A DNA stretch of 64,000 nt from Escherichia phage vB_EcoM-fFiEco06. The notes below the pieces were generated by a model that saw only the letters and a list, made by a program, of their open reading frames with translations, did no database searches and was not told where the DNA came from. The position numbers and the translations under genes were made by a program. Below are positions 1,236 through 49,715 of the stretch, in pieces. Each line of letters opens with the position of its first letter. Position 1 is the first letter of the stretch. The DNA is taken from the sequence record NC_054914.1; one strand, written 5' to 3'.

Positions 1236-1880
1236 TTGATTATGGGGCTTCGGCCCCTATTCTCGAGGAAACAAGTGATTATTTCTAAGTTTGTTACAAT
1301 AAAACCAAGAAATCATTCAAAAATGTGGTCGACAATTCTGGGATATAAAGTATCATATCATGATACAGTATCTGTTCCAATAGAATTAATGCCAAAGAAT
1401 AGTAATAAAATAGTTGACGCTAAATGTGATTTGTGTGGTATTAAATTTAGTAGAAGCATTCAGCTTTTAAATAGAACACCCACGCATGCATGTAGAAAAT
1501 GTAGCATTAAACAAGTTGCTATTAAAAATTCGGAAGTTCAATCTGGAATAAGTAGACCATGGCAAAGAGGTGATAAACATCCTCGATGGACTGGTAAAAG
1601 AAAAGAGTTTGCATTATATGCTAGTAGAGTTCATTCTATAACTAAGTCAGCTAAAATAAGAAAAATCTGGTCAAAATGGCCAAATGCTGATAAAATAGGA
1701 GTGTGTGGTGTAGAAGGTGCTTACCAGCTTGATCATAAGGTATCTATCAAATATGGATTTGATAATTTAATTCCGCCGGAAATTATAGCAAGCGTAAAAA
1801 ATTTAGAAATAATCACTTGGGAATCTAACCGAGAAAAGTCAAAAAGAAATAGCGTAGATCTTTGGGATTTACTAGAATGA
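1236..1880 (+). CDS. HNH-family endonuclease-like protein with N-terminal CxxC...CxxC zinc ribbon; probable free-standing homing endonuclease; start codon uncertain (TTG 1236, ATG 1242, GTG 1272 or ATG 1323)
   Basis: C-terminal motif YQLDHKVSIKYGFDNL...ITWESNREKSKRN (D-H...N...N) and CDLCG...CRKC seen in translation; ORF fills the gene 18/19 gap. Confidence 0.55.
   Translation: MIMGLRPLFSRKQVIISKFVTIKPRNHSKMWSTILGYKVSYHDTVSVPIELMPKNSNKIVDAKCDLCGIKFSRSIQLLNRTPTHACRKCSIKQVAIKNSEVQSGISRPWQRGDKHPRWTGKRKEFALYASRVHSITKSAKIRKIWSKWPNADKIGVCGVEGAYQLDHKVSIKYGFDNLIPPEIIASVKNLEIITWESNREKSKRNSVDLWDLLE
1244..1257 (+). terminator. GGGGC-UUCG-GCCCC tetraloop hairpin immediately after gene 18 stop
   Basis: Perfect 5-bp GC stem with UUCG loop read directly; weak U-tract. 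Confidence 0.6.
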
Positions 1881-1987: not shown

Positions 1988-2479
1988 ATGTTTGTAGATG
2001 ATGTAACACGAGCGTTTGAATCTGGTGATTTTGCTCGACCTAACTTATTCCAAGTAGAAATTTCTTATCTTGGACAAAATTTTACATTCCAATGTAAAGC
2101 CACTGCTTTACCAGCTGGTATTGTAGAAAAAATTCCAGTCGGATTTATGAACCGTAAAATTAACGTAGCAGGCGATCGTACATTCGATGACTGGACTGTT
2201 ACAGTAATGAACGATGAAGCTCATGATGCTCGCCAGAAGTTTGTTGATTGGCAAAGCATTGCTGCTGGTCAAGGAAACGAAATTACTGGTGGAAAACCTG
2301 CAGAGTATAAAAAGAGCGCTATTGTTCGTCAATATGCTCGTGATGCTAAAACAGTAACAAAAGAAATTGAAATTAAAGGTCTGTGGCCTACTAACGTGGG
2401 TGAACTTCAATTAGATTGGGATTCAAACAATGAAATCCAAACCTTTGAAGTAACTCTTGCTCTCGATTATTGGGAATAA
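1988..2479 (+). CDS. 19: tail tube protein gp19 (163 aa)
   Basis: Length and position match T4 gp19; late promoter and RBS upstream. Confidence 0.9.
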   Translation: MFVDDVTRAFESGDFARPNLFQVEISYLGQNFTFQCKATALPAGIVEKIPVGFMNRKINVAGDRTFDDWTVTVMNDEAHDARQKFVDWQSIAAGQGNEITGGKPAEYKKSAIVRQYARDAKTVTKEIEIKGLWPTNVGELQLDWDSNNEIQTFEVTLALDYWE

Positions 2480-2485
2480 AATGAA

Positions 2486-2499
2486 TGGGGAGAAATCCC
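2486..2499 (+). terminator. GGGGA-GAAA-TCCCC hairpin after gene 19 (terminator or mRNA-stability hairpin)
   Basis: Stem-loop read directly; no strong U-tract. Confidence 0.4.
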
Positions 2500-2511
2500 C
2501 ATCCTGCTTAA

Positions 2512-4136
<1,625 letters not shown>

Positions 4137-4376: not shown

Positions 4377-4801
4377 TGCTTCTGATCCCTGAAACTCATG
4401 AATTAGTTCTCGAGAATGTCGAAGCACTTATTCCTGAAGCACAGGGTCGCTTTGACGAATTGTCTTCTGCTTTAAATAAAGACGATATAAATACAATTGT
4501 CGAGAATATGCTTGATGATGAAACTGATTTAGCGGTTGCATTAGCTTCTATTAATGAAAATATGCCGTTAAATGAATTTATCGTTAAACATGTTTCTGCC
4601 CGTGGTGAAATTACTCGCACTAAAGATCGCAAAACCCGCGAACGTAATGCATTTCAAACTACCGGGTTGTCTAAAGCAAAACGTAGACAAATTGCTCGTA
4701 AAGCTACCAAAACGAAGATTGCCAATCCAGCAGGTCAATCTCGTGCTCAGCGTAAGCGTAAAAAAGCTCTTAAACGCCGTAAAGCATTAGGATTAAGCTA
4801 A
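4376..4801 (+). CDS. 68: prohead core protein gp68
   Basis: 141 aa, basic C-terminus; position between 67 and 21. Confidence 0.8.
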
Positions 4802-5439
4802 TGAATGAACCCCAATTACTAATTGAAACTTGGGGTCAACCTGGCGAAATTATTGATGGCGTACCAATGCTTGAATCTCATGATGGAAAAGACTTAGGTT
4901 TAAAACCGGGTTTATACATCGAAGGAATATTCATGCAAGCGGAAGTTGTCAATAGAAATAAACGTCTTTATCCAAAACGTATATTAGAAAAAGCGGTAAA
5001 AGACTATATTAATGAGCAAGTTTTAACTAAACAAGCTCTCGGAGAATTAAATCATCCTCCACGCGCTAATGTTGACCCGATGCAAGCCGCTATCATTATA
5101 GAAGATATGTGGTGGAAAGGAAATGACGTATACGGACGAGCTCGTGTTATTGAAGGTGACCACGGTCCTGGAGATAAATTAGCAGCTAATATTCGTGCCG
5201 GATGGATTCCAGGAGTTTCTTCTCGTGGATTAGGTTCATTGACTGACACAAATAAAGGTTATCGTATCGTAAACGAAGGATTCAAATTAACTGTAGGTGT
5301 TGATGCAGTATGGGGTCCAAGTGCTCCAGATGCATGGGTAACTCCTAAGGAAATTACCGAATCACAGACGGCTGAAGCCGATACAAGTGCCGATGACGCC
5401 TATATGGCTCTCGCAGAGGCCATGAAAAAAGCGTTATAA
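4801..5439 (+). CDS. 21: prohead core protease gp21
   Basis: 212 aa; length and position match T4 gp21. Confidence 0.9.
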   Translation: MNEPQLLIETWGQPGEIIDGVPMLESHDGKDLGLKPGLYIEGIFMQAEVVNRNKRLYPKRILEKAVKDYINEQVLTKQALGELNHPPRANVDPMQAAIIIEDMWWKGNDVYGRARVIEGDHGPGDKLAANIRAGWIPGVSSRGLGSLTDTNKGYRIVNEGFKLTVGVDAVWGPSAPDAWVTPKEITESQTAEADTSADDAYMALAEAMKKAL

Positions 5440-5442
5440 ATA
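5435..5442 (+). promoter_or_regulatory. late promoter TATAAATA for gene 22
   Basis: Exact match 28 nt upstream of ATG 5470. Confidence 0.65.
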
Positions 5443-5469
5443 TTATTATCTAAACAACAGGACTACAAA

Positions 5470-6279
5470 ATGCTTAAAGAACAACTGATTGCCGAAGCGC
5501 AGAAAATTGATGCTTCCGTTGCTCTTGATAGTATTTTCGAATCAGTTAATATTTCTCCGGAAGCAAAAGAAACTTTCGGCACTGTATTCGAAGCTACCGT
5601 CAAGCAGCACGCCGTTAAATTAGCTGAATCTCATATCGCTAAAATTGCTGAAAAAGCAGAAGAAGAAGTAGAAAAAAATAAAGAAGAAGCAGAAGAAAAA
5701 GCTGAGAAGAAAATCGCTGAGCAAGCTTCTAAATTCCTTGACCATCTTGCAAAAGAATGGCTCACTGAAAATAAATTAGCAGTAGATAAAGGTATCAAAG
5801 CCGAACTGTTTGAATCCATGCTTGGTGGATTGAAAGAGCTCTTCGTTGAACACAACGTTGTTGTTCCAGAAGAATCAGTTGATGTTGTAGCTGAAATGGA
5901 AGAAGAACTGCAAGAACATAAAGAAGAATCAGCTCGTCTGTTCGAAGAACTCAATAAGCGTGACGCATATATCAATTATGTGCAGCGTGAAGTGGCATTG
6001 AGCGAAAGTACTAAAGATCTGACTGAGTCTCAAAAAGAAAAAGTCTCTGCTCTGGTCGAAGGTATGGATTATTCAGATGCATTCTCAAGTAAATTGAGTG
6101 CAATCGTAGAAATGGTGAAGAAATCTAATAAAGATGAAAGCACTATTACTGAGAGTATAAATACTCCTGATACTGAAGCAGCCGGACTGAATTTCGTCAC
6201 TGAAGCTGTAGAAGATAAATCTGCACAAGGTGCAGAAGATATTGTAAGTGTATATGCGAAAGTCGCATCTCGTTTCTAA
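5470..6279 (+). CDS. 22: prohead core scaffold protein gp22
   Basis: 269 aa, Glu/Lys-rich coiled-coil-like protein; position upstream of 23. Confidence 0.85.
   Translation: MLKEQLIAEAQKIDASVALDSIFESVNISPEAKETFGTVFEATVKQHAVKLAESHIAKIAEKAEEEVEKNKEEAEEKAEKKIAEQASKFLDHLAKEWLTENKLAVDKGIKAELFESMLGGLKELFVEHNVVVPEESVDVVAEMEEELQEHKEESARLFEELNKRDAYINYVQREVALSESTKDLTESQKEKVSALVEGMDYSDAFSSKLSAIVEMVKKSNKDESTITESINTPDTEAAGLNFVTEAVEDKSAQGAEDIVSVYAKVASRF
6156..6163 (+). promoter_or_regulatory. late promoter TATAAATA inside 3' end of gene 22, candidate promoter for gene 23
   Basis: Exact TATAAATA ~135 nt upstream of gene 23 ATG. Confidence 0.55.
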
Positions 6280-6297
6280 TTTTAAAGGTTAACACAA

Positions 6298-7863
6298 ATG
6301 ACTATCAAAACTAAAGCTGAACTTTTGAACAAATGGAAGCCATTACTGGAAGGTGAAGGTTTACCGGAAATTGCTAATAGCAAACAAGCGATTATCGCTA
6401 AAATCTTTGAAAACCAGGAAAAAGATTTCCAGACAGCTCCGGAATATAAAGACGAAAAAATTGCTCAGGCATTCGGTTCTTTCTTAACAGAAGCTGAAAT
6501 CGGTGGTGACCACGGTTACAATGCTACCAACATCGCTGCAGGTCAGACTTCTGGAGCAGTAACTCAGATTGGCCCAGCTGTTATGGGTATGGTACGTCGT
6601 GCTATTCCTAACCTGATTGCTTTCGATATTTGTGGTGTTCAGCCAATGAACAGCCCGACTGGCCAGGTATTCGCACTGCGCGCAGTATATGGTAAAGACC
6701 CAATCGCTTCCGGTGCTAAAGAAGCATTCCACCCAATGTATGGTCCAGATGCAATGTTCTCTGGTCAGGGTGCTGCTAAGAAATTCGCTGCTTTGAAAGC
6801 AAGTGATACTCTTGAAGTCGGAACTATTTACACTCACTTCTTCCAGGAAACTGGTACAGTATATCTGCAAGCTACAGCAGCTAAACAAATTGATTCAGGC
6901 GCATCTGACGCAGACAAATTAGATGCTGAAATTAAGAAACAAATGGAAGCTGGTGTACTGGTAGAAATCGCTGAAGGTATGGCTACTTCTATCGCTGAAC
7001 TTCAAGAAGGTTTTAACGGTTCTACCGATAACCCGTGGAATGAAATGGGCTTCCGTATCGATAAACAAGTTATCGAAGCTAAATCTCGTCAGCTGAAAGC
7101 TGCTTACTCTATTGAATTAGCACAAGACCTCCGCGCTGTTCACGGTATGGATGCTGATGCTGAACTGTCTGGTATTCTGGCTACAGAAATTATGCTGGAA
7201 ATCAACCGTGAAGTTGTTGATTGGATTAACTACTCCGCTCAGGTTGGTAAATCTGGTATGACCCTGACTCCGGGTTCTAAAGCTGGTGTATTTGACTTCC
7301 AGGACCCAATCGATATTCGTGGTGCTCGCTGGGCAGGTGAATCCTTTAAAGCTCTGTTGTTCCAGATTGACAAAGAAGCAGTTGAAATTGCTCGTCAGAC
7401 TGGTCGCGGCGAAGGTAACTTCATTATCGCTTCCCGTAACGTAGTTAACGTTCTGGCTTCAGTTGATACCGGCATTTCTTATGCTGCACAAGGTCTGGCT
7501 ACTGGCTTTAACACTGATACTACCAAGTCAGTATTTGCTGGTGTTCTGGGTGGTAAATACCGTGTATATATCGACCAGTATGCTAAACAGGATTATTTCA
7601 CCGTAGGTTATAAAGGTCCGAACGAAATGGATGCTGGTATTTACTATGCTCCATATGTAGCTCTGACTCCGCTGCGTGGTTCTGATCCGAAGAACTTCCA
7701 ACCGGTAATGGGATTCAAAACTCGTTACGGTATCGGTATCAACCCATTTGCAGAATCCGCTGCTCAGGCTCCGGCTTCTCGCATCCAGAGCGGTATGCCT
7801 TCTATTCTGAATAGCCTTGGTAAAAACGCTTACTTTAGACGTGTATATGTTAAAGGTATCTAA
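6298..7863 (+). CDS. 23: major capsid protein gp23 (521 aa precursor)
   Basis: Sequence recognisable as T4 gp23 (MTIKTKAELLNKWKPLLEGEG...); length identical. Confidence 0.97.
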   Translation: MTIKTKAELLNKWKPLLEGEGLPEIANSKQAIIAKIFENQEKDFQTAPEYKDEKIAQAFGSFLTEAEIGGDHGYNATNIAAGQTSGAVTQIGPAVMGMVRRAIPNLIAFDICGVQPMNSPTGQVFALRAVYGKDPIASGAKEAFHPMYGPDAMFSGQGAAKKFAALKASDTLEVGTIYTHFFQETGTVYLQATAAKQIDSGASDADKLDAEIKKQMEAGVLVEIAEGMATSIAELQEGFNGSTDNPWNEMGFRIDKQVIEAKSRQLKAAYSIELAQDLRAVHGMDADAELSGILATEIMLEINREVVDWINYSAQVGKSGMTLTPGSKAGVFDFQDPIDIRGARWAGESFKALLFQIDKEAVEIARQTGRGEGNFIIASRNVVNVLASVDTGISYAAQGLATGFNTDTTKSVFAGVLGGKYRVYIDQYAKQDYFTVGYKGPNEMDAGIYYAPYVALTPLRGSDPKNFQPVMGFKTRYGIGINPFAESAAQAPASRIQSGMPSILNSLGKNAYFRRVYVKGI

Positions 7864-7877
7864 TCTTTGACGATTTA

Positions 7878-7895
7878 AGGGACCTTCGGGTCCCT
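7878..7895 (+). terminator. AGGGACC-UUCG-GGUCCCU hairpin with T-rich tail after gene 23
   Basis: 7-bp stem, UUCG loop, followed by TTAGTTGTTTTT. Confidence 0.75.
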
Positions 7896-7911
7896 TTAGT
7901 TGTTTTTATGG

Positions 7912-7919
7912 TATAAATA
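7912..7919 (+). promoter_or_regulatory. late promoter TATAAATA for gene 24
   Basis: Exact match ~28 nt upstream of ATG 7947. Confidence 0.7.
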
Positions 7920-7946
7920 AATCATATAAACCAAAAGGAAAGCGCA

Positions 7947-10855: not shown

Positions 10856-11986
10856 TTATGGATAGGTATAGATGATACCAGTTTCTAAAGCAGTTTTATG
10901 AATGATGTATCCATTGCGTGATTCTTGAACATCAACTTCTGGATAGTCTTTCATCATCTTCTGAAGAGTGTAACGATGCAGGTAGTATTTACTGTCTGGA
11001 TCTTCAGTTTTCCAATCTTTACCTTCTTCGGTCATTTTTTGGATTTCATCCATAACCCACCAACCGCACCAGATATAAGCTGAAGTACGATGTGGAAGAG
11101 GATGAACATAAGGCAATTCACCTTCTGGTTCTGGAGCAACTTTATCAGTTACCTGAACTTGACCTTCTGCTGTAATAGTTTTGCTATCGTAATCAGTTGC
11201 AGTAACGACAGCAGTAACTTCAATAGTTTGACTTCCAACAGATGAGGTATCGACAGTATATACGTTAGTTGACCCTTCTACAGGAGAAGAATCTTTCTTC
11301 CATGAGTAAGTAATTTGTGCTTCTTCTGGAGCACCCGTAACATTAGCCGTAAATGTAGCCGAAGCATCTTGCTGAACGTTAATAGAAGGAGGAGTCAATG
11401 TAACCTGTAGATTCATTGTTTTCTTATTAACAGTCAATGATACTTCATTAGAAGTAACTTCCTTTTCATTGTAATTTTCTGCAGTTACTTGCGCTACACA
11501 CTTAACTGTTTTAGCTCCAACTGTGGTAGGAGTATAGTTAAATGTAGTAGTAGTTTCTCCATCGACCAGAGAACCGTCAACATACCACTGATACGTAGCA
11601 GACGCTCCTGGTGGCTGTGAATCCAAGGCAGCAGTAAATTGAACTGGGGTTCCAATTACTCCGGCAGCAGGATTAGCAGGAGTTACGGCTAAGGTGGTCG
11701 TTTGTGTCTTATTTTGAACTGTGATAGTTGTAGTAGCTTCTGCTGTTTCAGCATCAGTATCTGGAACTGTATTTGTTGCAACTACTTTAATAGTCTTTTG
11801 TCCAGCAGGTCCTTTTAATACATAATCAAAAGTTGCTTCAGCTCCATCTTGTGGAGCATCATCTACAGTCCAAGCATATGTAATAGTTCCGCCTCCAGTT
11901 TCACCACTGGGTGTAGCAGTAAACTGCTTAGTTTCATCAATAACCCCTGTCGGTGTTTTAGGAGTTATATCAACTGTAAAAGTCAT
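10856..11986 (-). CDS. hoc: highly immunogenic outer capsid protein Hoc (Ig-like domain repeats)
   Basis: 376 aa, Thr/Val-rich repeated Ig-like segments; size and position match T4 Hoc. Confidence 0.85.
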   Translation of the reverse strand: MTFTVDITPKTPTGVIDETKQFTATPSGETGGGTITYAWTVDDAPQDGAEATFDYVLKGPAGQKTIKVVATNTVPDTDAETAEATTTITVQNKTQTTTLAVTPANPAAGVIGTPVQFTAALDSQPPGASATYQWYVDGSLVDGETTTTFNYTPTTVGAKTVKCVAQVTAENYNEKEVTSNEVSLTVNKKTMNLQVTLTPPSINVQQDASATFTANVTGAPEEAQITYSWKKDSSPVEGSTNVYTVDTSSVGSQTIEVTAVVTATDYDSKTITAEGQVQVTDKVAPEPEGELPYVHPLPHRTSAYIWCGWWVMDEIQKMTEEGKDWKTEDPDSKYYLHRYTLQKMMKDYPEVDVQESRNGYIIHKTALETGIIYTYP

Positions 11987-11995
11987 AAGTTATCC

Positions 11996-12676
11996 TTATT
12001 TTAATGTTACGAAAGAAGAGTTGCGTGTTTCACGAATTAAAACTGATCCGTCACGGTTAATGTAATAAATTAAGCTAAATAAAGTTTGGTGTGCTGACGC
12101 ATGTTCAAAACTAGTTGGGTGAGATTTCCAATCAGGAGTTTCAGCAATCCATTGATAAATCCACCAAGGAACAGTACAGAATCCTGGATTTTTTCCAATC
12201 AACTGAAGATTCGGGCTAAAGTTTTCCGGAAGAGTAAATACAGACGGCTTTTCAGATTCAATAATCTCAGCTACAGCCTGTTCAAATTTTTCTTCAACAA
12301 ATGGAGTATCTTCAATCAAAACATCGGTATTTTCAGGAATTTTATCTGTTTCTACTACTTCAATTTTAATGTCAGATTTAACCGGAGAATCAATCAAAAG
12401 TGCTGCTTCTGGATTGACTTCTTCATCGTCATATTTTAACCCCTCTGCAGCATCAGCAGCATCAATTAAGTCTTTAATAGATAACCCATCAGTCTCCGGC
12501 ATAGGTTCACTAGCGAGCTTCTGGAGGGCTTCTTCAATATCAACAACGATATTATCAAAAGATTTATTCTTTTTGACCTTTATACCAAACTGTTCAGCAT
12601 ATTCAGCTAATTTAGCTTTAGCTTCTTTGTTATCATCAAGAGCCTTCAGCTCTGCAATATAATCTTTATCTATCAT
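11996..12676 (-). CDS. inh: inhibitor of prohead protease (Inh)
   Basis: 226 aa; position between hoc and uvsW. Confidence 0.75.
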   Translation of the reverse strand: MIDKDYIAELKALDDNKEAKAKLAEYAEQFGIKVKKNKSFDNIVVDIEEALQKLASEPMPETDGLSIKDLIDAADAAEGLKYDDEEVNPEAALLIDSPVKSDIKIEVVETDKIPENTDVLIEDTPFVEEKFEQAVAEIIESEKPSVFTLPENFSPNLQLIGKNPGFCTVPWWIYQWIAETPDWKSHPTSFEHASAHQTLFSLIYYINRDGSVLIRETRNSSFVTLK

Positions 12677-12689
12677 AATATTTCCTCAG

Positions 12690-12697
12690 TATAAATA
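12690..12697 (+). promoter_or_regulatory. late promoter TATAAATA for uvsW
   Basis: Exact match ~30 nt upstream of ATG 12727. Confidence 0.65.
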
Positions 12698-12726
12698 TAG
12701 ATATATTTATTACATGGTATTTAGAC

Positions 12727-14238
12727 ATGACTGACATTAAAGTACATTTTTATGATTTTAGTCACGTGAGAATTGATTGTGAAGAAAGTACATTTCATGA
12801 ACTCCGTGATTTCTTTAGCTTTGAAGCTGATGGGTATCGTTTTAATCCGAAGTACAAATATGGCCACTGGGATGGACGAATTCGTCTTTTAGATTATAAT
12901 CGCCTTCTTCCATTCGGTTTAGTCGGGCAAATTAAAAAGTTCTGCGATAACTTTGGCTATAAAGCCTGGATTGACCCACAGATTAACGAAAAAGAAGAAT
13001 TATCAAGAAAAGATTTTGATGAATGGCTTTCTAAATTAGAAATCTATTCAGGAAATAAAAGAATTGAACCGCATTGGTATCAAAAAGATGCAGTGTTCGA
13101 AGGATTAGTTAATCGTCGTAGAATTCTTAATCTTCCAACATCCGCAGGTAAATCTTTAATTCAAGCTTTGCTTGCTCGGTATTATTTGGAAAATTATGAA
13201 GGCAAAATTCTTATTATTGTTCCAACAACTGCTCTGACAACTCAGATGGCTGATGACTTTGTTGACTATCGTTTATTCAGTCATGCAATGATAAAGAAAA
13301 TCGGTGGTGGAGCATCAAAAGATGATAAATATAAAAATGATGCACCGGTCGTTGTTGGTACATGGCAAACTGTAGTAAAACAACCGAAAGAATGGTTCTC
13401 ACAGTTTGGAATGATGATGAATGATGAATGTCATCTTGCTACAGGAAAAAGTATTTCATCTATCATATCAGGTTTAAATAACTGCATGTTCAAATTCGGT
13501 TTGTCTGGTTCATTACGTGATGGCAAAGCCAATATCATGCAGTATGTTGGAATGTTCGGTGAAATATTTAAGCCAGTAACGACTTCTAAGTTAATGGAAG
13601 ATGGACAAGTAACTGAGCTAAAAATTAATAGTATTTTTCTTCGCTATCCCGATGAGTTCACTACTAAATTAAAGGGAAAAACTTATCAAGAAGAAATAAA
13701 AATTATTACGGGGCTTAGTAAAAGAAATAAATGGATCGCTAAATTGGCTATTAAGCTTGCACAAAAAGATGAAAACGCTTTTGTCATGTTTAAACATGTA
13801 TCGCATGGTAAAGCTATTTTCGATTTAATTAAAAATGAATACGATAAAGTTTATTACGTATCAGGGGAAGTTGATACCGAAACCCGCAATATAATGAAAA
13901 CCTTAGCTGAAAATGGTAAAGGAATAATTATAGTAGCTAGTTATGGTGTATTTTCTACTGGTATTTCAGTTAAAAATCTGCATCACGTTGTTTTAGCGCA
14001 CGGTGTTAAATCAAAAATCATTGTATTACAAACAATCGGTCGTGTATTACGTAAGCATGGTTCTAAGACAATAGCAACCGTCTGGGACCTCATAGATGAT
14101 TGTGGCGTTAAGCCAAAATCTGCTAATACGAAAAAGAAATACGTTCATTTGAACTATCTTTTAAAACACGGCATTGATCGTATTCAGCGCTACGCAGATG
14201 AAAAATTTAATTACGTAATGAAAACAGTTAATTTATAA
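12727..14238 (+). CDS. uvsW: UvsW SF2 DNA/RNA helicase (503 aa)
   Basis: Walker A LPTSAGKS, DEAH-like MNDECH; length matches T4 UvsW. Confidence 0.9.
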   Translation: MTDIKVHFYDFSHVRIDCEESTFHELRDFFSFEADGYRFNPKYKYGHWDGRIRLLDYNRLLPFGLVGQIKKFCDNFGYKAWIDPQINEKEELSRKDFDEWLSKLEIYSGNKRIEPHWYQKDAVFEGLVNRRRILNLPTSAGKSLIQALLARYYLENYEGKILIIVPTTALTTQMADDFVDYRLFSHAMIKKIGGGASKDDKYKNDAPVVVGTWQTVVKQPKEWFSQFGMMMNDECHLATGKSISSIISGLNNCMFKFGLSGSLRDGKANIMQYVGMFGEIFKPVTTSKLMEDGQVTELKINSIFLRYPDEFTTKLKGKTYQEEIKIITGLSKRNKWIAKLAIKLAQKDENAFVMFKHVSHGKAIFDLIKNEYDKVYYVSGEVDTETRNIMKTLAENGKGIIIVASYGVFSTGISVKNLHHVVLAHGVKSKIIVLQTIGRVLRKHGSKTIATVWDLIDDCGVKPKSANTKKKYVHLNYLLKHGIDRIQRYADEKFNYVMKTVNL

Positions 14239-14250
14239 GGGCTTCGGCCC
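14239..14250 (+). terminator. GGGC-UUCG-GCCC hairpin + UUU directly after uvsW stop
   Basis: Read directly; the downstream GGAG RBS follows the hairpin. Confidence 0.55.
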
Positions 14251-14263
14251 TTTGGAGAAAAAG

Positions 14264-14494
14264 ATGTTACTAGAATTTAAACAATTTCTTTATGAAGCTT
14301 CTATTGATGAATTTATGGGTAAAATTGCCTCTTGTCAAACATTAGAAGGTTTAGAAGAACTTGAAGCTTATTATAAGAAAAGAGTTAAAGAAACTGAATT
14401 AAAAGATACTGATGACATCTCAGTCAGAGATGCTTTGGCAGGAAAAAGAGCTGAATTAGAAGATTCAGACGATGAAGTAGAAGAAAGCTTTTAA
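14264..14494 (+). CDS. uvsW.1: UvsW.1 small acidic protein (76 aa; start ATG 14264 after GGAG)
   Basis: Size matches T4 UvsW.1; RBS spacing 6 nt. Confidence 0.7.
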   Translation: MLLEFKQFLYEASIDEFMGKIASCQTLEGLEELEAYYKKRVKETELKDTDDISVRDALAGKRAELEDSDDEVEESF

Positions 14495-23083: not shown

Positions 23084-23143
23084 TTTGTGTTCCTCATGTT
23101 ATGTCAGTAAGACTACTATAACACAACACGAGGGACTTGTAAA

Positions 23144-25201
23144 CTACATTTTGAACTTTTTAGACATTCCGTTGATGTTAACCAAAGAAGTCAAGATTTG
23201 AGAAACTTCATTTTCCTCTTCTTTTGATTCTTCTACAAGGAATTGATTAAATCCAGCCATTGGACGAACTTCACCAGTTTCCATTAGATGGTCTCCATCA
23301 TATACTGATTCTTCTAATTGTTCAGAAGGAGGAACGATTGTACCTTCGATTAGATACTTGTTATAAGCAGTTTCTTTCATAAAGTACGTACTTACTTTAT
23401 TAATCTTCAGTAAAATTCCACGTGGTAGAATAACTTCAGCTTCTGATGGAAATCCTGATAAATGACCTGGAACGATAACTTTGATTCGCTCAGCTCCTTT
23501 AATTACCATACCCACGCTAGTTTCTGCATCTTCATTAGCATATGTAGAATGACTACCCATATGCATCAAATCTTCTGCATCAACGGAACCTTCTCCTTCA
23601 CCAGAAAATACTGCGCCGGAATCATCTAGAGCCATATAGTTTTTACCATGCTCACCGAAGATATTTGGTTTAAGCGATGTGGATACGAAGTTCTTGAAAT
23701 AGAACATTTTATTTTCAATGTTATGACGCAAAGTTTTAAAGGTAACTTCTTGCCCACGGTAAAGTGTAGTTCCTGGAGGAAGAACTGATCCTTTGGCAAA
23801 GGCAGAATCTAACGTCTCGATGTGCTTAATAGCTCGTTCCATGTATTCTTCACGGGTAGAATCTGGTTTACCCAAAAGGAACGAGTTCATTTCAACATAT
23901 GAATCTGCACAATAATCTTCAATTACATCAGATTCAGCCTGAGTCAGTCCTTTTGGAGCTACTTCGGTGCTTGCGTATTCATATGCCTGGGCAGCAGATT
24001 CATTAATCAATTTATAAATGCCATTCATTACAAATTGAATAATAGCTGTCTTTTCATCTGGTGTGGTTTTAGAACCTTTAACTAAATCATTAATAATTTT
24101 CTTAATAACATCAAAGCTATTAGAAATATTAATGTCAGCAAGATCGCTTAAAATTTTATCAGTTTTATAATCAAAGAATTCTTTATTCTTTAAATATTCT
24201 TGAGAACCTTGATATGTTATATCGCTCTGCAACTTGATAGATGGATCACGTAAACGTGCATGGGCCAATGCAATATGATTTCGGAAGCTTTCTAGTTCAT
24301 AATCGCTAGATTTAAAACGAGAAGCACTTCTCATACCACCGATAGCTCCTTTGCTGAAGTTTGAACCAATCTGGATAACGCCAGAGTTCATTGGTCCTTC
24401 TGCTTTATATACCGGAACTTTAGATTCAAACTCTTGATATTTCTTGGCAGCGAAGCTATCACCCTGTAGCGAAGCATCGACAGTAGAATATTGAGCTTGT
24501 GCTGCTAATCGACGACTAATTTTAGTTTTCTGAATAACAGCTTGGTCCGTGCGCTTATCATTTTCTAAAGCAATAGAAGCAGCAACAGCGACAGCTTTAG
24601 GAACAGCATTTCCTGTTTTAACGTCTACATAAACATCACCGACCTTTGATTCAACTTTTGTGAATAACTCAGTTGAAATGGGAGGTACACCTGGAATGTC
24701 TTCTAAATTGGCATTTTTACGGTAAACCATAATATATGCGTACTTTTTATCGTAATCCCAGATTTCCTTTAAAAGAACATATCGACCTGCTCCTTTAGTA
24801 CGTACTAAACGGTCAGCAATAACTTGCATTTGACGAGCTGCGCCATTTGTTTTACTCTTTAGTACACGGAATAAGCACGCGTCAATTTTATACTGCTTCA
24901 TTGTTTGAAGAGCAGTATCAAAAACGGCATTAATGACACCAATTGGATTTCCACCCAAGTTTTTAAGCTTAACTAATGATAGTTTCTCATTAACACCTAT
25001 CATTACGATATGCATCATTTTATCGCCTGGCTTAACGTTTTTATTCGTATCACCACCAGAGGTGTATGTACAAAATCTAAATCCAGGAAGCACGCTTTCT
25101 TCGCCGGCTTGAATAGCAAAAATTTGTGGTATTTTATGCTTAGGATTTAAGTTAACAACCGGCGCCGAAGCGCCGTCAAATAATTCTGTAATAAGTTCCA
25201 T
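23144..25201 (-). CDS. Alt-like ADP-ribosyltransferase paralog (685 aa), R-S-E motifs intact
   Basis: N-terminus MELITELFD shared with the upstream copy; TLYRGQ, NFVSTSL, EAEVILPRG motifs seen. Confidence 0.75.
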   Translation of the reverse strand: MELITELFDGASAPVVNLNPKHKIPQIFAIQAGEESVLPGFRFCTYTSGGDTNKNVKPGDKMMHIVMIGVNEKLSLVKLKNLGGNPIGVINAVFDTALQTMKQYKIDACLFRVLKSKTNGAARQMQVIADRLVRTKGAGRYVLLKEIWDYDKKYAYIMVYRKNANLEDIPGVPPISTELFTKVESKVGDVYVDVKTGNAVPKAVAVAASIALENDKRTDQAVIQKTKISRRLAAQAQYSTVDASLQGDSFAAKKYQEFESKVPVYKAEGPMNSGVIQIGSNFSKGAIGGMRSASRFKSSDYELESFRNHIALAHARLRDPSIKLQSDITYQGSQEYLKNKEFFDYKTDKILSDLADINISNSFDVIKKIINDLVKGSKTTPDEKTAIIQFVMNGIYKLINESAAQAYEYASTEVAPKGLTQAESDVIEDYCADSYVEMNSFLLGKPDSTREEYMERAIKHIETLDSAFAKGSVLPPGTTLYRGQEVTFKTLRHNIENKMFYFKNFVSTSLKPNIFGEHGKNYMALDDSGAVFSGEGEGSVDAEDLMHMGSHSTYANEDAETSVGMVIKGAERIKVIVPGHLSGFPSEAEVILPRGILLKINKVSTYFMKETAYNKYLIEGTIVPPSEQLEESVYDGDHLMETGEVRPMAGFNQFLVEESKEEENEVSQILTSLVNINGMSKKFKM

Positions 25202-38900: not shown

Positions 38901-38961
38901 AAAGTCCTCATGTTATGTCAGTAAGACTACTATAACACAACACGAGGGACTTGTAAACAGC

Positions 38962-40576: not shown

Positions 40577-41755
40577 TTAAAAGTATTTTTTAAAACTCAT
40601 CATAACTTTATCATCAACATCATTATCAATCTGTGCAACAAGGTAAGATGACAATTCTACTTCTTGTGGCGCAGATTGAACATTATCAGAATTAAGATAT
40701 TCACGAATCCAAGGATATGGATGTTTAACCGGAGCATCGGTAATTGGGCATGGAAGACCACACTGCTTCATACGAGATACAGTTAAGTAATCAATAAAGC
40801 TCCACATGCTATTTGTATTTAATCCAGGAACATCTCCATCTTTAAATAAATGAACTGCCCAATCTTTTTCTTGGCGGTTAACTTCCATGAAAATATCAAC
40901 TGCTTCTTGTTCACACTCTTGAGCAATTTTAACCCATTGATCGCCATCAGTACCAGATTGAAGTTGACGAATAATATATTGGGTGCCTTTAAGGTGAAGC
41001 TGTTCATCGCGTGCAATGAACTTCATAATCTTGGCATTACCTTCCATGATTTCCATGTTCTTATGGAAGTTAAAGGTACATGCAAAAGATACATAAAAAC
41101 GAATAGCTTCCAATGCGTTGATTACATGCAAACAGAGGTAAAGAGATTTCATTAGCTCACGCTTCCAATATGTCTCATGCTCAATAGCATCTTCAATAAC
41201 GTCTTCGTCTGCATTAATTTCTTTTTGGTATTCGATATCAGCTTTAGCGTTTTCCCAATAACGAGTTTTAATCAGAACATCATCATAATAACGTCCAATG
41301 GATTCAGCACGTTTCATAATAGCTTCATCTAATACAATCTCATCAAATACCTTCGATGGATCAGTATAAAGATTTCGCATGATATGAGTATATGAACGAC
41401 TGTGAATAGTTTCACTAAAAGTCCATGTAGCAACCCATGTATCAAGACTTGGGTCTGAAATTAATGACATAAGTACAGCAGACGGCGCACGACCCTGAAT
41501 GCTATCTAAAAGTGATTGATACTTCAGGTTGTTAGTAAAAATATTTTGCTGGTACTGAGGAAGCTTATTAAACTGTGCAGCATCCATCATCAAGTTTACT
41601 TCTTCAGGACGCCAGAAAAATGATAATTGCTTTTCGGTTAAATCTTCAAAAACTTTATGACGTTGAATATCATAACGCGCAATACCAAGACCTGAACCAA
41701 AAAACATAGGTTCTTTTAAAACATCAACTGGATTTGTATTAAAAACTGTGCTCAT
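40577..41755 (-). CDS. nrdB: ribonucleotide reductase small subunit NrdB, uninterrupted
   Basis: Continuous 392-aa ORF recognisable as R2. Confidence 0.9.
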   Translation of the reverse strand: MSTVFNTNPVDVLKEPMFFGSGLGIARYDIQRHKVFEDLTEKQLSFFWRPEEVNLMMDAAQFNKLPQYQQNIFTNNLKYQSLLDSIQGRAPSAVLMSLISDPSLDTWVATWTFSETIHSRSYTHIMRNLYTDPSKVFDEIVLDEAIMKRAESIGRYYDDVLIKTRYWENAKADIEYQKEINADEDVIEDAIEHETYWKRELMKSLYLCLHVINALEAIRFYVSFACTFNFHKNMEIMEGNAKIMKFIARDEQLHLKGTQYIIRQLQSGTDGDQWVKIAQECEQEAVDIFMEVNRQEKDWAVHLFKDGDVPGLNTNSMWSFIDYLTVSRMKQCGLPCPITDAPVKHPYPWIREYLNSDNVQSAPQEVELSSYLVAQIDNDVDDKVMMSFKKYF

Positions 41756-41806
41756 AAATTTTCCGCTTAGTTAATAGTTGGTGACTCGTCCGTGAGTCAA
41801 ATTATA

Positions 41807-44940: not shown

Positions 44941-45956
44941 CATTATGTTCAGATAAGGTCGTTAATCTTACCCCGGAATTATATCCAGCTGCATGTCACC
45001 ATGCAGATCAGACTATATCTCCAACTTGTTAAAGCAAGTTGTCTATCGTTTCGAGTCACTTGACCCTACTCCCCAAAGGGATAGTCGTTAGGCATTTATG
45101 TAGAACCAATTCCATTTATCAGATTTTACACGATAAGTAACTAATCCAGACGAAATTTTAAAATGTCTAGCTGCATCTGCTGCACAATCAAAAATAACCC
45201 CATCACATGAAATCTTTTTAATATTACTAGGCTTTTTACCTTTCATCTTTTCTGATATTTTAGATTTAGTTATGTCTGAATGCTTATGATTAAAGAATGA
45301 ATTATTTTCACCTGAACGATTTCTGCATTTACTACAAGTATAAGCAGAAGTTTGTATGCGAACACCGCACTTACAAAACTTATGGGTTTCTGGATTCAAA
45401 CGCCCGTTTTTACTTCCGGGTTTACTGTAAAGAGCTTTCCGACCATCAGGTCCAAGTTTAAGCATCTTAGCTTTAACAGTTTCAGAACGTTTCTTAATAA
45501 TTTCTTCTTTTAATGGATGCGTAGAACATGTATCACCAAACGTTGCATCAGCAATATTGTATCCATTAATTTTAGAATTAAGCTCTTTAATCCAAAAATT
45601 TTCTCGTTCAATAATCAAATCTTTCTCATATGGAATTTCTTCCAAAATAGAACATTCAAACACATTACCATGTTTGTTAAAAGACCTCTGAAGCTTTATA
45701 GAAGAATGGCATCCTTTTTCTAAATCTTTAAAATGCCTCTTCCATCTCTTTTCAAAATCTTTAGCACTTCCTACATATACTTTATTGTTTAAAGTATTTT
45801 TAATCTGATAAATTCCGCTTTTCATAAATACCTCTTTAAATATAGAAGTATTTATTAAAGGGCAGTCCTACAATTTAGCACGGGATTGTCTACTAGAGAG
45901 GTTCCCCGTTTAGATAGATTACAAGTATAAGTCACCTTATACTCAGGCCTCAATTA
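44941..45956 (-). mobile_element. td group I self-splicing intron (1016 nt) carrying I-TevI
   Basis: Intron 5' sequence TAATTGAGGCCTGAGTATAAGGTGACTTATACTTGTAATC... recognised; length equals T4 td intron. Confidence 0.92.
45088..45825 (-). CDS. I-TevI: GIY-YIG homing endonuclease I-TevI (245 aa), intron-encoded
   Basis: N-terminus MKSGIYQIKNTLNNKVYVGSAKDFEKRWKRH (GIY...YVG) and zinc finger; length matches. Confidence 0.93.
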   Translation of the reverse strand: MKSGIYQIKNTLNNKVYVGSAKDFEKRWKRHFKDLEKGCHSSIKLQRSFNKHGNVFECSILEEIPYEKDLIIERENFWIKELNSKINGYNIADATFGDTCSTHPLKEEIIKKRSETVKAKMLKLGPDGRKALYSKPGSKNGRLNPETHKFCKCGVRIQTSAYTCSKCRNRSGENNSFFNHKHSDITKSKISEKMKGKKPSNIKKISCDGVIFDCAADAARHFKISSGLVTYRVKSDKWNWFYINA

Positions 45957-49616: not shown

Positions 49617-49682
49617 TTTTATTTCCTTTTTAATTTAATTAACAGTTGGTGCTATGACGATGTATGACCTCATAGCTGGTCA
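49617..49682 (-). promoter_or_regulatory. gene 32 autoregulatory translational operator: A/U-rich leader (UUAAUUAAAUUAAAAAGGAAAUAAAAAUG) preceded by an RNA pseudoknot
   Basis: Minus-strand leader read directly; pseudoknot stems UGACC/GGUCA and GCUAUGA/UCAUAGC. Confidence 0.75.
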
Positions 49683-49699
49683 GTGAGATAATTATAATC

Positions 49700-49707
49700 T
49701 ATTTATA
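49700..49707 (-). promoter_or_regulatory. late promoter TATAAATA (minus strand) upstream of gene 32 leader
   Basis: Exact TATTTATA on plus strand. Confidence 0.55.
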
Positions 49708-49715
49708 ATAAGCAA

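Follow-up and report, generated by a model that had tools for sequence, protein, structure and literature searches.

The inh–uvsW junction of a T4-like Escherichia phage: a 50-bp spacer without segE and a potential recipient site for SegE homing

Genes and putative expression signals at the inh–uvsW junction

The DNA analysed here, a stretch of 64,000 nucleotides from Escherichia phage vB_EcoM-fFiEco06 (NC_054914.1; hereafter the window), is a Tequatrovirus (T4-like) segment. Over the 64 kb, 34 mismatches and 6 gaps separate it from Escherichia phage vB_EcoM-fHoEco02 (MG781191.1), an identity of 99.93%, and positions 11900-13300 are 100% identical in both phages. At the locus of interest, the minus-strand gene inh, whose start codon appears as the complement 'cat' at 12674-12676, and the plus-strand gene uvsW are separated by exactly 50 bp of non-coding DNA, as judged from the ORF list and the raw sequence (Table 1). 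The product of uvsW matches the Pfam domains UvsW_N (E 3.9e-43), ResIII, DEAD and Helicase_C. No ORF of at least 40 aa is listed within the spacer. An earlier note on this DNA had claimed that the 50 bp between inh and uvsW leave no room for segE, and the ORF coordinates, with inh ending at 12676 and uvsW starting at 12727, agree with this. As the spacing is a fixed property of the sequence, no chance test is applicable to it.

Table 1 Features of the inh–uvsW junction in the window
Feature	Position	Strand	Basis and remarks
inh (hoc.1), inhibitor of prohead protease, 226 aa	11996..12676	-	ORF; annotated as inh in MG781191.1 and T4; left flank
inh/uvsW intergenic spacer, 50 bp, unoccupied segE site	12677..12726	.	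Sequence; same spacer in T2
Putative Shine-Dalgarno sequence of inh, GAGGAAA, 4 nt 5′ of the inh ATG	12681..12687	-	Sequence; identical in T2 and T4
Putative late-promoter box facing uvsW, TATAAATA	12690..12697	+	Exact consensus match; 29 nt 5′ of the uvsW ATG
Putative late-promoter-like box facing inh, AATAAATA	12704..12711	-	7/8 consensus match
uvsW leader, ATGGTATTTAGAC, 13 bp	12714..12726	+	Alignment with T4
uvsW, helicase, 503 aa	12727..14238	+	ORF; annotated as uvsW in MG781191.1; right flank
Dimorphic tract, uvsW nt 19-141, 123 bp, T2-type allele in the window	12745..12867	+	Alignment with T4

In hoc (11143-11800), blocks that are 53-78% identical to T4 lie inside a region with otherwise 93-100% identity, and most of the scarce differences from fHoEco02 also cluster in this gene, from around 11408-11560. 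Judged by these patterns, hoc appears to be a mosaic, fast-evolving stretch of head decoration gene. On the other side of the junction, the window resembles most relatives in having uvsW followed by a separate uvsW.1 (14264-14494). In the T4 reference, uvsW is a single ORF of 1764 bp that carries a note on a sequence discrepancy (4678-6441 of the retrieved T4 segment versus 12727-14494 of the window), and in T6 (MH550421) uvsW is present as two ORFs.

The spacer contains two putative promoter boxes. The first, TATAAATA, which matches the T4 late-promoter consensus exactly, is suitably placed 5′ of a late gene to serve as a late promoter for uvsW. In the window as a whole there are 18 copies of the motif, compared to 7.95 expected, and the copy at this position is invariant among seven aligned sequences that represent five genera. 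Located 6 bp past this box, the plus-strand sequence TATTTATT reads as AATAAATA on the minus strand, that is, towards inh. Its plus-strand form TATTTAT[T/A] is conserved across all aligned genera, and in JS10, CGG4-1 and Gravdalen it is the exact complement of TATAAATA. The whole core, GTATAAATATA..TATATTTAT[T/A]AC, is invariant in the same seven sequences. While the conservation is observed directly, the arrangement suggests that the two boxes may act as back-to-back late promoters for uvsW and inh.

A different type of putative expression signal was found elsewhere in the window. When read on the minus strand, an identical 54-bp repeat, GTTTACAAGTCCCTCGTGTTGTGTTATAGTAGTCTTACTGACATAACATGAGGA, is found at 23091-23144 and at 38905-38958, with its copies upstream of the minus-strand alt.-3 homologue and of alc. 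It contains an early-promoter-like sequence (GTTTAC ... TATAGT), then a short inverted repeat (TGTTAT...ATAACA) and a probable Shine-Dalgarno sequence, and resembles the promoter-early-stem-loop cassettes known from T4-type phages. Directly downstream of alt lies a second alt-like gene (23144-25201, minus strand), which encodes an ADP-ribosyltransferase of about 685 aa; according to the note in its record, the N-terminus of the product is similar to that of T4 Alt.-1.

The segE insertion in T4 and the distribution of empty junctions

In T4 (NC_000866), inh (111327..112007, minus strand) is followed by segE (112057..112674, plus strand) and by uvsW, which starts at 112677 on the plus strand. 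The T4 segE gene has a length of 618 bp and encodes a protein of 205 aa that matches the Pfam family PF19835 (SegE_GIY-YIG), with PF01541 just under the cutoff. That segE lies between inh and uvsW in T4 had been claimed in the earlier note, and the annotation as well as our alignments are in agreement with it. The alignment with T4 placed segE nowhere else in the T4 genome and returned different junctions for T4 and the window.

The position of the insertion could be narrowed down by comparing both loci. inh differs from its T4 counterpart at 15 of 681 nt, the last of which is at 12497. From there on, window and T4 are identical over 216 bp (12498-12713), ending with ...GTATAAATATAGATATATTTATTAC. 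In place of the 13-bp leader of the window, T4 has TCGGAAAATAGT (12 bp), segE (618 bp) and TT, which together amount to 632 bp. The insertion boundary at 12713/12714 was set by eye from this pairwise comparison together with the BLAST break point, as the BLAST alignments of segE-bearing phages end at query position 114, which corresponds to window position 12713. A MAFFT alignment put the gap inside the promoter core; this position was dropped, since direct sequence comparison and the BLAST break both give 12713/12714. We also noticed a weak resemblance between the leader and the 3′ end of segE (common ATTTAG), which was judged to be due to chance. Across the T4 inh-segE-uvsW locus (NC_000866 111327-114440), identity to the window is 96-100% in inh, in the promoter core as far as 12713 and in uvsW past nt 141. 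T4 differs in having 632 bp where the window has 13 bp, in missing the Thr2 codon of uvsW that is present in the window, and in a stretch of uvsW (nt 19-141) with an identity of only 73%.

The TATAAATA box is located 5′ of segE in T4, and in T4, CGG4-1 and Gravdalen alike the endonuclease gene starts just 3′ of the promoter core. This fits the reported transcription of segE from a promoter in the non-coding region 5′ of its ORF (Edgell et al. 2010, PMC2988022).

The window itself has no SegE-like GIY-YIG ORF between inh and uvsW. A tblastn search with T4 SegE did not find segE anywhere in the 64 kb (best E = 4), and neither tblastn nor blastn found it in the complete genome of the near-identical fHoEco02. 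To place this state among related phages, a 261-nt junction query was used. It was matched in one uninterrupted piece (at least 80% coverage) in 775 of the 996 matching records, which include T2 (99.6%), Mosigvirus (about 83%), Dhakavirus (about 72%) and Klebsiella T4-like phages (about 68%) as well as a few hundred further Tequatrovirus records. SegE at an identity of at least 95% was present in 159 records. Most records therefore have the empty junction. In T2 (LC348380.1), spacer and uvsW 5′ tract are the same as in the window bar one substitution, leaving essentially no difference at the locus.

The spacer of the segE-less Mosigvirus ATK47 is clearly homologous to that of the window, and 11 of the 13 leader positions match. 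Since the outgroup genera have the empty junction, the leader matches that of ATK47 and the promoter core is invariant, the comparison argues for the empty inh/uvsW junction being ancestral rather than a deletion scar.

Genes related to segE were also observed at the inh/uvsW junction of phages from other genera. The encoded proteins are 65% identical to SegE in Salmonella phage CGG4-1 (Gelderlandvirus; 2486-3115 of the retrieved segment), 48% in Escherichia phage BEU50 (Mosigvirus; about 2450-3232) and 39% in Erwinia phage Gravdalen (Winklervirus; 2351-3001). All three genes start just 3′ of the conserved late-promoter core.

Four further sites that are occupied in T4 by segD, I-TevIII, mobE or segG (Edgell et al. 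2010, PMC2988022, Table 1) are empty in the window as well. segD is absent from the 83-bp gap between genes 23 and 24 (7864-7946), and segG from the 99-bp gap between genes 32 and 59 (49617-49715). Within 40577-41806, nrdB (392 aa) is uninterrupted and thus has no intron and no I-TevIII, and the 51-bp gap between nrdB and nrdA is devoid of mobE. In turn, td is split by an intron encoding I-TevI (245 aa; 45088-45825, minus strand). A 212-aa ORF (1242-1880, plus strand) is located between the genes for gp18 (tail sheath) and gp19 (tail tube); the near-identical fHoEco02 record lists it as hypothetical. In T4, gene 19 follows directly after gene 18. The ORF product gave no Pfam matches; it matches phrog_5104 (unknown function; E 5e-82) and has a weak match to a 'homing endonuclease' phrog (E 8e-4). 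With the HNH-like motif in its C-terminus (...YQLDHKVSIKYGF...NLEIITWESNREK), it is probably a free-standing HNH homing endonuclease.

A dimorphic 5′ tract in uvsW

The differences between the uvsW genes of window and T4 are unevenly distributed. Of a total of 72, 34 fall within the first 141 nt, and the identity between the window and the segE-linked T4-type allele is 73.2% in the tract, 95.7% in the next 162 nt and 96-100% in the flanks. Beyond nt 141, 38 of 1368 positions differ, equivalent to about 97% identity past 12867. In the first 141 nt, 20 of the 25 differing codons are synonymous, and several of the changes in the tract take more than one step within a six-fold degenerate codon (AGC/TCG, CGT/AGA, CTC/TTA).

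In the phage collection, the identity of the tract to the T4 type is bimodally distributed, with 158 records of the T4 type (at least 95% identity), about 25 between 80 and 90%, and the rest between 60 and 80%. The numbers of records with a T4-type tract (158) and with segE (159) are nearly equal as overall totals. The intermediate class includes PE37, CJY920 and BCH953P4, which possess the empty 50-bp junction and a tract that is T2-type in its 5′ part and T4-type in its 3′ part. The breakpoints in these mosaics lie near the window-equivalent positions 12849 (PE37), 12834 (CJY920) and 12817 (BCH953P4); the mosaic region corresponds to 12817-12865 of the window. None of their T4-type substitutions occurs in the aligned window tract, whose sequence is the plain T2-type allele that nearly all Tequatrovirus records without segE share. 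With respect to Mosigvirus, the window allele is 80.5% identical and the T4-type allele 67.5%. A sensitive blastn search for a donor lineage of the T4-type tract found nothing above about 77% outside Tequatrovirus.

Such a pattern would be expected from co-conversion together with a homing endonuclease gene, or from divergence of the target site. The dimorphic tract is likely the region of the SegE target and of co-conversion, and the mosaic segE-less alleles may be products of partial co-conversion. The same mosaics bear on a second possible history of the empty junction, according to which an ancestor carried segE and the gene was later precisely deleted, leaving the 50-bp spacer. Homing-endonuclease genes cycle through gain, decay and loss, and the roughly 25 segE-less records with part of the T4-type tract demonstrate that exchange between the allele classes occurs. 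However, the leader and the tract of the window are both T2-type and show homology to the corresponding sequences of the outgroup, segE-less Mosigvirus (11/13 and 80.5%, respectively), the T4-type polymorphisms of the mosaics are lacking, and no segE remnant is present in the window or in the fHoEco02 genome. We therefore regard secondary loss as very improbable. If segE had been lost through conversion from an empty allele, the result would look the same as a site that was never occupied.

Tentatively, the tract may be read further. In this scenario, which we consider possible but would not favour, an unsampled lineage was the source from which Tequatrovirus received segE along with a short, foreign uvsW piece, the mosaics (roughly 25) are partial conversions, some of them perhaps SegE-resistant, and the junction is a homing hot spot in multiple genera with an arms race over the target site, in which the window allele is naive. 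The proposed foreign origin of the uvsW piece is based on the divergence of the tract, which resembles that between genera (73%, with saturated synonymous changes) in the midst of flanks with 96-100% identity, and on the lack of a close match in the sampled genera. The proposed hot spot is based on the distinct SegE-family genes at this junction in Gelderlandvirus, Mosigvirus BEU50 and Winklervirus.

The junction as a potential recipient site for SegE

segE is a free-standing, active GIY-YIG endonuclease gene with inh/uvsW as insertion site and uvsW as target gene (Edgell et al. 2010, PMC2988022, Table 1). The earlier note had further claimed that SegE cleaves segE-less relatives at the inh-uvsW junction. 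This is upheld by Brok-Volchanskaya et al. (2008, PMC2330249, citing Kadyrov et al. 1997), according to whom RB30 and RB52, both lacking segE, have a SegE cleavage site in their hoc.1(inh)-uvsW region. The same authors describe SegE-driven homing of segE into RB30 as almost 100% efficient, homology-dependent and accompanied by co-conversion. In general, homing proceeds by a double-strand break, resection and repair from the donor.

The window shares several prerequisites of such a recipient. It has a syntenic inh/uvsW junction without segE, and homology to a T4-type donor extends to both sides of the insertion point, with the 216 identical bp to the left and uvsW beyond nt 141 to the right. 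The junction thus resembles those of RB30 and RB52, the experimental segE-less recipients, in its inh and uvsW flanks, in the absence of segE and in belonging to a T-even host phage. This likeness is one of synteny and segE absence, and the window phage is a relative of fHoEco02. We conclude that the window most probably contains a naive SegE recipient site, the allele of which should be cleavable.

Where SegE would cut can be approached from the tract. The cut site, given as uvsW or as the hoc.1-uvsW region, may lie outside 12677-12726. In 1997, Kadyrov reportedly found the cut in RB30 DNA to lie at the 5′ end of uvsW, and T4 DNA to be cleaved less efficiently; such a position of the cut in RB30 is consistent with the dimorphic tract. 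A comparison can be drawn with SegF at gene 56 and SegG at gene 32, as studied in crosses of T4 and T2. Like segE, their genes are free-standing GIY-YIG genes of variable presence beside a conserved target, with co-conversion of flanking markers. SegF and SegG are reported to cut hundreds of bp away from their own genes, whereas the divergent tract described here starts within about 25 bp of the insertion point, and SegE therefore probably cuts closer to its own gene than SegF and SegG.

The reported weaker cleavage of T4's own allele also indicates that variation in the tract matters, and mosaic segE-less alleles exist. Both would be compatible with an empty site that is immune, its target being uncleavable by SegE through differences from RB30 or through its pattern of glucosyl-hydroxymethylcytosine. 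We consider this improbable, though less so than a secondary loss of segE. The window carries no T4-type substitutions, and its tract is the plain T2-type of nearly all segE-less Tequatrovirus phages in a distribution with 158 T4-type alleles, 25 mosaics and T2-type alleles for the rest. RB30 and RB52, as segE-less T-even phages, most probably have the same allele.

Taken together, we hold it to be highly probable that the junction in the window is the ancestral, never-occupied inh/uvsW form, with divergent expression signals and the potential to receive segE. According to this model, the ancestral 50-bp spacer would provide the ribosome-binding site of inh, a late-promoter box to uvsW and a late-promoter-like box to inh. 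segE would have been copied into T4 and roughly 160 sequenced relatives at a position 16 bp 3′ of the TATAAATA box, replacing the 13-bp leader, and because of this position would be transcribed from the same upstream late promoter. The window phage, segE-less and with a T2-type uvsW 5′ end, would be a possible recipient. On co-infection with a phage that carries segE, a SegE cut would be expected at the 5′ end of uvsW or slightly within it. The break would be repaired from the donor, with segE and the flanking T4-type polymorphisms transferred together (intronless homing with co-conversion).

Polymorphism in the presence of segE and homing of SegE into empty sites have already been known since 1997, and the finding reported here is correct but ordinary. 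In co-infections with T4-type phages, the window phage would probably be on the receiving side of gene conversion driven by SegE. Beyond annotation this matters little; its relevance is to marker exclusion and to mosaicism, be it in phage cocktails or in evolution experiments. A natural dataset on the co-conversion tracts of free-standing endonucleases is provided by the dimorphic tract of 123 bp, the empty alleles of mosaic type and the occupancy of the junction in other genera; it extends the known biology of these phages and does not change it.
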